DNA of 29,192 nt from the IMG/VR virus record IMGVR_UViG_2700989521_000016, one strand, 5' to 3'. Below the pieces are notes generated by a model, which saw only the letters and a program-made list of their open reading frames with translations, made no database searches and was not told the origin of the DNA. The first letter of the stretch is position 1, and every line of letters begins with the position of its first letter. A program made the position numbers and the translations under genes. Below are positions 5,026 through 29,192 of the stretch, in pieces. The DNA comes from a virus. Taxonomy: Duplodnaviria; Heunggongvirae; Uroviricota; Caudoviricetes.

Positions 5026-5102
5026 TTACCGTTGAGGTAATAATTATGCGTATTTGGTTTGATGTCAATAGATATGAGTTGAAAAAATTACCTGCAAGGT
5101 AA
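5026..5102. promoter_or_regulatory. PL-like leftward early promoter region with two perfect TTACC-N5-GGTAA operator palindromes (5026-5040, 5088-5102)
   Basis: Perfect palindromes TTACCGTTGAGGTAA and TTACCTGCAAGGTAA read directly; minus-strand TTGACA (5063-5068) and CATAAT/TAATTA-like -10 candidates lie between and adjacent to them; exact -35/-10 spacing not resolved. Confidence 0.6.
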
Positions 5103-5113
5103 TTAGATGGACA

Positions 5114-5137
5114 ATAAAAAAGCCGCCAAATGGCGGC
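5114..5137 (-). terminator. Rho-independent terminator downstream of the repressor gene
   Basis: Stem GCCGCC/GGCGGC (5122-5137) with 4-nt loop, followed on the minus strand by a 6-nt U tract (complement of AAAAAA 5116-5121). Confidence 0.65.
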
Positions 5138-5159
5138 TTACTTACTGAAAAATATGATT

Positions 5160-5744
5160 TTATTGTTTGTTTTTTTCGTTCTGGTTGATGACAAATTCAA
5201 TGTAACTTTCGATCTTTGCTTTCTCGGTTTCAGGTAACAATGCGTAGCGCGAGCGGTCATAGTTGATAGTTGCAGGGTCGTGCGGGTGAATCAGTAGTTC
5301 ATATCCGTGACGCCCGAATGCAGATGCAACATTCTCCAGAGTGGAAATGGAAACGCTGACCTCATTGTTTAACAGGCGGCTGATTGTCACCTGGGCGACG
5401 CCGGATGCGCGGTGAAGTTTTCCCTGAGTTGAAAGGTCGCGGCTTTCACTCATCCAGCGTTCCAGGTTGTGAGCCGCCAGCTGACCAATGTCGCTTGGTC
5501 CAACAGGCTGAAAACCCTCCTGAGAAAGCGAGCGATCGATATCAAGCCAGTTACGTGGTTTATTGGCGGCAGCTTCAATTTTTCGCGCAACCTGGTCGCC
5601 GATAACCTTCTTGCCAAGAGCCCAGCGGTTTACCAGATTTGCCTGAGTTCCAAGTTTTTCTGCCATCCGCGTCTGAACACCATTGAATTCACGGTCGATC
5701 AAGTCGTTGAGATTTTGCCTGCGGACGTCCTGGATACTTTTCAT
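5160..5744 (-). CDS. Prophage repressor candidate with two tandem XRE-type helix-turn-helix domains and no recognisable S24 peptidase domain
   Basis: 194 aa; two HTH-like segments (MAEKLGTQANLVNRWALGKK...; ASGVAQVTISRLLNNEVSVSISTLENVASAFG); divergent from Cro-like gene with operator palindromes between them. Confidence 0.75.
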   Translation of the reverse strand: MKSIQDVRRQNLNDLIDREFNGVQTRMAEKLGTQANLVNRWALGKKVIGDQVARKIEAAANKPRNWLDIDRSLSQEGFQPVGPSDIGQLAAHNLERWMSESRDLSTQGKLHRASGVAQVTISRLLNNEVSVSISTLENVASAFGRHGYELLIHPHDPATINYDRSRYALLPETEKAKIESYIEFVINQNEKNKQ

Positions 5745-5799: not shown

Positions 5800-5862
5800 T
5801 TACCCAACAGGTAAATGCACCCCATAGGTAACTATCCTTGATTTTTGTTACCTTATGGGTGA
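5800..5862. promoter_or_regulatory. Tripartite operator region between repressor and Cro-like genes (sites 5800-5814 perfect, 5817-5831 imperfect, 5848-5862 9/10)
   Basis: TTACCCAACAGGTAA, GCACCCCATAGGTAA, TTACCTTATGGGTGA read directly; TTGATT -35-like hexamer at 5837-5842 upstream of the Cro-like gene. Confidence 0.65.
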
Positions 5863-5898
5863 ATATTTATTATCTGAAATAAATATCAGGCAATAGCT

Positions 5899-6129
5899 AT
5901 GAGCGATAACGGACATTTCGATTTCAAAAAGCACTGGCTTGCACTTACTCCGGATGAGCGTGAAGCCTTCGCACAGGAAGCCGGAACGACGAGTCACTAT
6001 ATCCAGACTCACTTAACAGGTAAGCGCAAAATGACAGGTAAAGTATTGATGAATGGGCTTTTTAAAGCCTGTAAAACAAGACAATGGCTGCGCTCAAAAG
6101 CAGAACTGGCATACTTCTTCTACTCATGA
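5899..6129 (+). CDS. Cro-like / YdaS-like small DNA-binding regulator
   Basis: 76 aa; position divergent from repressor; pattern resembles Cro/CI-type HTH (EAFAQEAGTTSHYIQTHLTGKRKM); weak SD. Confidence 0.65.
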   Translation: MSDNGHFDFKKHWLALTPDEREAFAQEAGTTSHYIQTHLTGKRKMTGKVLMNGLFKACKTRQWLRSKAELAYFFYS

Positions 6130-8130: not shown

Positions 8131-8207
8131 TTACCTTCTGGGTAATGAGATATTCTAAAATCTATTGATTTCGTGTCTTATGTGGTTTTTAATTACCTCA
8201 GGGGTAA
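8131..8207. promoter_or_regulatory. Promoter region of the nin-like operon with two perfect TTACC-N5-GGTAA palindromes (8131-8145, 8193-8207)
   Basis: TTACCTTCTGGGTAA and TTACCTCAGGGGTAA read directly; TTGATT (8165-8170) then 17 bp then TTTAAT (8188-8193) looks like a sigma70 promoter; second palindrome overlaps the -10/RBS of the gene starting at 8211. Confidence 0.6.
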
Positions 8208-11802: not shown

Positions 11803-11835
11803 TTACCACAACGGTAACTATTACCACGGTGGTTA
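11803..11835. promoter_or_regulatory. Two TTACC-N5-GGTAA-type palindromes directly upstream of the small terminase start (11803-11817 perfect, 11821-11835 9/10)
   Basis: TTACCACAACGGTAA and TTACCACGGTGGTTA read directly; second site abuts the terS ATG at 11835. Confidence 0.6.
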
Positions 11836-14547: not shown

Positions 14548-14624
14548 TGGCGTGGCATGCAGGATTCGAACCTGCGACCAACCGCTTAGAAGGCGGTTGC
14601 TCTGTCCGACTGAGCTAATGCCAC
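14548..14624 (-). tRNA. tRNA-Arg (anticodon UCU), phage-borne
   Basis: Manually folded 77-nt cloverleaf on minus strand: acceptor GTGGCAT/ATGCCAC, D-arm GCTC/GAGC, anticodon stem ACCGC/GCGGT with loop CTTCTAA (anticodon TCT), T-arm GCAGG-TTCGAAT-CCTGC identical to E. coli argU as recalled, discriminator G and encoded CCA. Confidence 0.8.
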
Positions 14625-14946: not shown

Positions 14947-14961
14947 TTACCTGAAAGGTAA
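14947..14961. promoter_or_regulatory. Perfect TTACC-N5-GGTAA palindrome at the head of the virion-gene operon
   Basis: TTACCTGAAAGGTAA read directly, right half-site runs into GGTAATAAT (possible -10); a second GGTAATAAT at 15017-15025. Confidence 0.6.
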
Positions 14962-18944: not shown

Positions 18945-18960
18945 CGCCTGTTATTAACCT

Positions 18961-18980
18961 GTGGGTCGTAACAGACCCAC
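18961..18980 (+). other. Perfect 7-bp stem-loop (GTGGGTC-GTAACA-GACCCAC) in the intercistronic region after the capsid gene
   Basis: Read directly; no U tract, so more likely an mRNA processing or stability element than a terminator. Confidence 0.5.
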
Positions 18981-28481: not shown

Positions 28482-29192
28482 ATGAGACAGGAATGTATAC
28501 AAGCGGTCCAGCAGGCGGCGCAGCGCACGTTAACGGCGCGAGAAATACAGAACATTGAAGACCGCATTTATCGAAATATGCGCTCCATTGCTCGTGATGA
28601 CACGATGTCGTGGAGACAACTTTCCGAATCAGAGCGGCTATATCGTGCAGCACAATTGGCATCTGAAGAATTACAGCGAGAAGCGGCATTAAAGAAACGT
28701 CGTGTGGCCCTCACTATAGCCGCACGTCAGAGATTGGATAAATTTATCAATAGCTATCAAGGGGCTGATGGGAAACTTGGCGCTCTTAACCGTACTATTG
28801 CTTTTAATGCAGACGGTAAATCGAATTTCCTCTCTGTTGAATCCAGAACAAAAGCCACCCGTGAGTATGCATTGAGTCAATTGCAGGAGGCATTCGAAGC
28901 AGTTGATCCTCGCTTTTTTGGTCTGTTTGAAGATGAAGCGGGCGTACGTGACCTGGTATATGAAATGCGGGGGCAAAATACTGGCAATGCTAAAGCAAGA
29001 AAAGGTGCTAAGGCGTGGAGAGAAGTGACAGAGCTACTGCGCCGCCGGTTTAATGATGCTGGTGGGGACATTGGCTATCTCGAAAACTGGGGGATCCCTC
29101 AACATCATTCTATGGAAAAGGTTGGGGCGGTATCAAAGGATAAGTGGGTTAGCGATGTTATAGGTAAGCTGGATCGTAGACTGGCCCCCTGA
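28482..29192 (+). CDS. Hypothetical virion-module protein (236 aa); stop codon is the last three bases of the window
   Basis: Complete ORF, TGA at 29190-29192; charged/helical; no family recognised. Confidence 0.6.
   Translation: MRQECIQAVQQAAQRTLTAREIQNIEDRIYRNMRSIARDDTMSWRQLSESERLYRAAQLASEELQREAALKKRRVALTIAARQRLDKFINSYQGADGKLGALNRTIAFNADGKSNFLSVESRTKATREYALSQLQEAFEAVDPRFFGLFEDEAGVRDLVYEMRGQNTGNAKARKGAKAWREVTELLRRRFNDAGGDIGYLENWGIPQHHSMEKVGAVSKDKWVSDVIGKLDRRLAP

Follow-up and report, generated by a model that had tools for sequence, protein, structure and literature searches.

The open reading frame at positions 5160–5744 of the window—the whole stretch of 29,192 nucleotides of viral DNA analysed here—encodes, with a probability that we put at about 0.88, the repressor that maintains lysogeny in a Uetakevirus prophage integrated at guaA. 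This protein, Rep, belongs to the family of the Rep repressor of the Salmonella phage SPC32H; it would read palindromic operators, and it would be released from them by the antirepressor Ant while staying uncut.

In the switch that we propose, the N-terminal helix-turn-helix (HTH) domain of Rep would read ATTACC-N5-GGTAAT palindromes at the promoters of the early-left and early-right operons, dimerisation would fall to the second HTH-like domain, and the C-terminal tail would bring the dimers together into a DNA-binding tetramer. Without a protease domain, Rep would stay uncut after DNA damage. The signal would instead run through the RecA-stimulated cleavage of LexA, which would lead to the de-repression of a separate ant gene of 85 codons, sited outside the window, with the virion-gene block on one side and the tail-fibre gene on the other. 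Ant would then bind the C-terminal module of Rep and take the tetramer off the DNA, leading to lytic growth. An antirepressor-controlled repressor without self-cleavage is an already known and structurally characterised switch; what the first-pass annotation had inferred for this gene was right, but it is not new.

Domain layout of Rep

The gene and the parts of its product are laid out as follows.

5160–5744, minus strand: rep, 194-aa prophage repressor, with the ATG at 5744 and the stop codon at 5160–5162
5535–5744, minus strand: Rep residues 1–70, Cro/XRE-type HTH, presumed operator-binding domain (weak Pfam match, PHROG, homology and structure model)
5289–5489, minus strand: Rep residues 86–152, second domain of HTH_3 type, which by homology would be the middle domain that serves dimerisation
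5163–5288, minus strand: Rep residues 153–194, C-terminal tail, assigned by homology to tetramerisation and the binding of Ant (CAD/TetDloop module)

The presence of two HTH-type domains, which had been read from the sequence before, is borne out by Pfam, PHROG and structure prediction. The full-length protein matches Pfam HTH_3 in two stretches (E=1.2e-9), accompanied by a YdaS/Cro-type HTH match at residues 21–61 and by HTH_26 and LacI-type HTH matches at residues 104–148. Taken alone, the C-terminal half reaches 25.8 bits for HTH_3—above the gathering score of 23 bits—and the N-terminal half gives weak matches to HTH_3 (15.7 bits) and YdaS (20.3 bits), both below the cut-off. The N-terminal HTH is upheld despite these sub-threshold scores, since two PHROG repressor families cover residues 1–76 (phrog_5736, 2.8e-11; phrog_12107, 4.1e-10), since this part is 54% identical to the aligned N-terminal part of SPC32H Rep, and since it folds into a bundle of four helices in the AlphaFold model. 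The model as a whole consists of two helical bundles at residues 4–59 and 86–151, joined by a linker of low confidence. A C-terminal helix is placed at residues 172–193, in a model with a mean pLDDT of only 74 that lacks the strand of the tail. Within this tail, Y162, L170 and F184 are conserved across 31 homologues.

Comparison with the Rep–Ant system of SPC32H

The closest structurally characterised relative of Rep is found in SPC32H, whose record (KC911856) has both rep and ant annotated, with a gene order for both as in the E. coli prophage. Rep matches the SPC32H Rep chain 5D50_A over residues 1–190 (phmmer, E=4e-42) and 5D4Z at 4e-20, and BLASTP gives 42% identity (E=2e-53). This identity is spread unevenly, with 54% in the N-terminal domain, 19% in the linker, 33% in the middle domain and 43% in the C-terminal tail. 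A Foldseek search with the Rep model likewise returns 5D50 and 5D4Z as best matches, and the C-terminal half including the tail reaches a TM score of 0.83 to 5D4Z_H. The title of PDB entry 5D50 reads 'Crystal structure of Rep-Ant complex from Salmonella-temperate phage'. The primary description of the system is due to Kim & Ryu (2013, J Virol) and Kim et al. (2016, PNAS).

In SPC32H Rep, the N-terminal domain binds DNA, the middle domain dimerises, and the C-terminal module both tetramerises and binds Ant (PMC9986798). On DNA, the protein is a tetramer at palindromic sites, and a tetrameric Ant takes two Rep dimers, thereby breaking the Rep tetramer (PMC9638917). The three-module layout, the genomic position and the palindromic half-sites are all common to the system described here. 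From this homology, the second HTH of Rep would be a dimerisation module and not a second reader of DNA. Hence, the earlier description of tandem HTH motifs stands as far as two HTH-like domains are concerned, but by analogy with the SPC32H literature only the first would contact operators. The host of SPC32H is Salmonella and not E. coli, and the Rep–Ant interaction of the E. coli variant would follow by analogy; against it stands that the Ant-binding and dimerising domains are only 33–43% identical to those of SPC32H Rep.

Relatives and function of the repressor

The repressors of phiV10 (gp40), vB_EcoP_ZX5 (ORF21), the O157 typing phages 9/10, PAS61, phiv142-3 and others have the same sequence as Rep (100% identity), so that the phiV10, ZX5 and typing-phage proteins show no difference from it at the protein level. 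The GenBank record of phiV10 describes gp40 as having "two helix-turn-helix motifs" and as similar to the putative repressor epsilon15p38. This epsilon15 repressor, gp38, comes from the same genus and shares the synteny, but its sequence has diverged to 42% identity with Rep; Kropinski et al. (2007) reportedly found it experimentally to be the major repressor.

For the identical ZX5 protein, functional data are at hand. Overexpression of ORF21 brought free phage down to zero and lowered the transcripts of endolysin by 99.99% and of holin by 99.97% (PMC9782041). The ZX5 lysogen releases 1e7 PFU/mL spontaneously and 1e9 after mitomycin C (PMC9782041), and this rise in titre indicates that the prophage type is SOS-inducible though its repressor is non-cleavable. 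Together with the immunity position of the gene and the homology to SPC32H Rep, the function of ZX5 ORF21 supports the earlier proposal that the open reading frame is the immunity repressor.

The prophage and its end in the window

The window contains the greater part of a podovirus prophage of the phiV10/epsilon15 type (genus Uetakevirus). A leftward early operon carries genes for a methyltransferase, a PerC-like activator, an excisionase-like protein, RecT and a RecE-like nuclease. Beyond the immunity region follow replication genes, the terminase, a tRNA-Arg gene and the virion genes up to a homologue of gp20. Two features mark the frame of this arrangement.

1–1251: integrase gene, at which the window exactly begins
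14548–14624, minus strand: phage-borne tRNA-Arg (anticodon TCT) that separates the terminase block from the portal block, a placement shared with SPC32H and ZX5

The nearest complete genome is that of E. coli WP3-S18-ESBL-09 (NZ_AP022036.1), whose prophage—referred to as L002 in the following—is 99.7–99.9% identical; it is integrated at the 3' end of guaA, where phiV10, epsilon15 and ZX5 are also reported to attach (PMC9782041). The last 16 nt of the window (29177–29192, TAGACTGGCCCCCTGA) diverge from every prophage-carrying complete E. coli genome, and the junction at this point is present in no complete E. coli genome. These nucleotides are the end of a multicopy element that continues into an IS3-family transposase gene with a programmed frameshift. 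We take this element to be IS2. From the IS-like end at 29177, the source is either interrupted by an insertion sequence in the virion gene homologous to gp20 or a contig broken at an IS copy, and the prophage in the source may be defective.

No self-cleavage module in Rep

The first-pass annotation had seen nothing resembling an S24 (LexA/CI) peptidase domain in the candidate repressor, and an HMM search bears this out. A Pfam search with the full protein finds neither Peptidase_S24 nor another cleavage domain at E<=1, and none of the 86 database homologues of Rep—about 194 aa in length and alike in Pfam content—carries an S24 domain. Neither an Ala-Gly nor a Cys-Gly dipeptide occurs anywhere in the 194 residues. 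The conclusion that RecA-stimulated self-cleavage is unlikely thus gains support from the sequence, in which both the self-cleavage module and the dipeptide are missing. SPC32H Rep is likewise reported not to be cleaved.

With lambda CI, P22 C2 and LexA, Rep has in common an operator-binding N-terminal HTH at divergent promoters and a repression that needs oligomerisation. These proteins, however, carry an S24 domain and a cleavage dipeptide, whereas Rep is without both and uses a different oligomerisation module. As a side observation, the Rep homologues P0064, P0077 and P0083–P0086 are frame-shifted or shortened to 106–128 aa and probably stem from decayed prophages or split gene calls.

Immunity region and candidate operators

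The position of rep is the canonical one for an immunity gene: it diverges from a cro-like gene, ends at a terminator of its own, and is flanked by the recombination operon (early-left) on one side and the replication operon (early-right) on the other. The region contains the following elements.

5899–6129, plus strand: cro-like gene, 76 aa (phrog_35 'transcriptional repressor', 1.5e-11; 74% identical to SPC32H_042)
5120–5139, minus strand: intrinsic-terminator-like hairpin closing the rep transcript; a terminator is annotated at the same place in phiV10
5800–5862: rep/cro palindrome cluster (5800–5814 perfect, 5817–5831 with 2 mismatches, 5848–5862 with 1 mismatch)
5845–5873, plus strand: PR-like promoter TTGTTA-17-TATTAT of the cro-like gene, a consensus match only, overlapping the palindrome at 5848–5862
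5026–5102: pair of perfect palindromes (5026–5040 and 5088–5102), 62 bp apart, around the PL-like promoter and just beyond the rep terminator
5040–5068, minus strand: PL-like promoter TTGACA-17-AATTAT (10/12 consensus positions)

Under the PL-like promoter, the early-left operon comprises small ORFs and the genes for the RecE-like exonuclease, RecT and the excisionase-like protein. The palindrome is defined as TTACC-N5-GGTAA, usually extended to ATTACC-N5-GGTAAT. At up to 2 mismatches, the window contains 26 matches against 7.1 expected, and none of 100 shuffles reached as many; in L002, 13 matches at up to 1 mismatch stand against 0.87 expected. A variant with a spacer of 6 nt gave no matches, which leaves the spacer of 5 nt as the right pattern. 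The cluster of three palindromes recurs at the syntenic place in SPC32H (34390, 34407 and 34437), and the pair 62 bp apart is likewise found in phiV10 and SPC32H. As sequence patterns, these palindromes are likely the operators of Rep, an assignment that draws on their fit with the conserved N-terminal domain and with the reported binding of the SPC32H tetramer to palindromes.

The antirepressor gene and its LexA box

If Rep is not cleaved, induction would need an antirepressor or another signal, and the first-pass annotation had noted no obvious candidate in the window. This holds: tblastn searches of the window with the SPC32H-type Ant and with the Bro-N protein of phiV10 returned only noise (best E of 2.1 and 0.36, respectively), and none of 20 other ORFs of the window scanned with PHROG falls into an antirepressor family. 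The advice to look elsewhere in the prophage did lead to a gene, which was found in the near-identical prophage of NZ_AP022036.1.

L002 33616–33873, minus strand: ant homologue, 85 aa, annotated 'hypothetical' (match to 5D50_E, the chain named 'Anti-repressor protein', E=2e-45)

Its product is 83% identical to SPC32H Ant, in a prophage whose Rep is identical to that of the window, and it has no Pfam family. The gene is flanked by the last virion gene and the tail-fibre gene, about 4.3 kb past the point at which the window ends. Hence, ant would be missing from the window because it lies beyond its 3' end, and we infer that the source genome still carries it. The product of phiV10 gp24 likewise matches SPC32H Ant. 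Towards SPC32H, the conservation of Ant (83%) is far above that of Rep (42% overall).

In L002, the start codon of ant is preceded by a perfect LexA box, CTGTATGAATATACAG, whose end lies 22 nt upstream of it, and a perfect box at the same distance is found in phiV10, SPC32H and ZX5. In Tyrion, a perfect box is located slightly farther from ant, and in the Klebsiella phage BUCT711 the box deviates by 1 mismatch. Sequence comparison of SPC32N with SPC32H reveals a change from CTGT to CTTT in the LexA box upstream of ant. A mutation of this box is said to make Ant constitutive (Kim & Ryu 2013), and the base change in SPC32N fits this. As a general pattern, CTGT-N8-ACAG is not enriched in the window, where 9 matches at up to 1 mismatch compare with 10.3 expected. 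The only perfect match, at 18959–18974 in the interval that separates the major capsid gene from the next head gene, is shared with phiV10 and L002; it has a GC-rich spacer and was set aside as probably not a functional LexA site.

By analogy, induction through an antirepressor is supported, as Ant is the trigger in the homologous SPC32H system (5D50, PMC7380047, PMC9638917): self-cleavage of LexA allows Ant synthesis, and Ant inhibits the repressor by protein–protein interaction (PMC7380047). Coliphage 186 with its Tum protein and the Gifsy and Fels-2 prophages share this logic, in which a small SOS-induced protein inactivates a non-cleavable repressor (PMC7380047); their antirepressors are, however, unrelated to Ant, and their repressor architectures differ.

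Alternative explanations

The most serious alternative assigns the main inactivation of Rep to a Bro-N-domain antirepressor, phiV10 gp23 or ZX5 ORF4, and not to the small Ant of the SPC32H type. For phiV10 gp23, the annotation gives Bro-N together with part of a COG3617 antirepressor domain, and the authors of the ZX5 study assign antirepression to the Bro-N protein ORF4, whose overexpression reduced the prophage count of 1e9 to 1e6 and the level of rep transcripts by 75% (PMC9782041). That experiment, however, consisted of overexpression only and showed no binding, and the paper mentions neither LexA nor SPC32H Ant (PMC9782041). ZX5 itself (MW722083) has a small ant gene at 1501–1758, labelled 'hypothetical', to which its perfect LexA box belongs. 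Moreover, L002, which is closest to the window, lacks a Bro-N gene at the locus, yet has kept ant and its LexA box, and SPC32H is likewise without a Bro-N gene. Between ZX5 and phiV10, the Bro-N proteins agree at only 39%, whereas Ant is conserved at 83–96%. We therefore regard a leading role of the Bro-N protein as unlikely, and the gene chosen as the principal antirepressor in the ZX5 study is probably the wrong one. The ZX5 Ant is 95% identical to that of L002 and is absent from the discussion of the paper; the Bro-N gene, ORF4, is found at 2074–2769 of MW722083.

Release by Ant also has to be weighed against a cut or degradation of Rep after DNA damage by a route other than S24, such as a host protease or a cryptic RecA-stimulated site, with Ant as an accessory. 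The mitomycin C inducibility of ZX5 lysogens would agree with this, but by itself it fits either route. Such a cut is very improbable given that Rep and its 86 homologues have no peptidase domain, that Rep lacks both dipeptides, that a crystal structure exists for the homologous Rep–Ant complex, and that SPC32N and SPC32H differ by a single base in the LexA box upstream of ant. The slimmest chance of all falls to the idea that the ORF is an antitoxin or another XRE regulator and no immunity repressor. It could appeal to the record of phage BP9, which labels the ORF 'VapI antidote', and to the weak YdaS_toxin match in Pfam. Both labels were rejected, as no toxin partner is adjacent, the gene takes the immunity position opposite the cro-like gene, the identical ZX5 protein has functional data, and the homology points to SPC32H Rep.

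Possible wider control by Rep

Palindromes of the same type recur outside the immunity region, in the window at 8131–8145, 8193–8207, 11803–11817, 11821–11835 and 14947–14961 and in L002 at 2013, 33950 and 39722. A pair with a distance of 62 bp precedes the DUF1064 operon, and further copies are found where the terminase gene begins and ahead of the portal block, the holin gene and int, with one more at a distance of 40 bp from the ant LexA box. These positions are kept in phiV10 and SPC32H. At the palindromes 8131/8193, 11803/11821 and 14947, no convincing match to a sigma-70 promoter was found on the expected strand. The recurrence of these sites suggests that Rep, or else Cro or another factor, exerts control across the genome.

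A tentative and rather doubtful extension would make Rep more than a repressor of two operators, acting at about 8 palindrome-bearing intergenic regions, clamping promoters, co-repressing ant and being open to cross-induction by Ant. The palindromes often come in pairs exactly 62 bp apart around a promoter, and each promoter could be clamped by one Rep tetramer that holds two such distant sites. Rep and LexA could jointly repress ant or the tail-fibre gene, which would amount to a double lock on induction. With Ant conserved at 83% and Rep at 42%, one Ant might also cross-induce Uetakevirus prophages with a diverged Rep. Part of this wider reading of Rep control may already be contained in the epsilon15 and SPC32H papers.

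Occurrence and annotation

The identification of rep answers no open biological question; its value lies chiefly in annotation, as the link of repressor and antirepressor to the SPC32H Rep–Ant structure offers a mechanism, from the SOS response via LexA and Ant to Rep, with which a whole prophage family can be annotated. In RefSeq, the repressor is labelled only 'helix-turn-helix domain-containing protein' and the antirepressor 'hypothetical protein'. Of 5426 complete E. coli genomes, 545 (~10%) contain the rep region. Homologues of Rep and Ant occur in 545 and 531 of the E. coli genomes, respectively, and among phage records in 37 and 35, which form a nearly identical set of Uetakeviruses.
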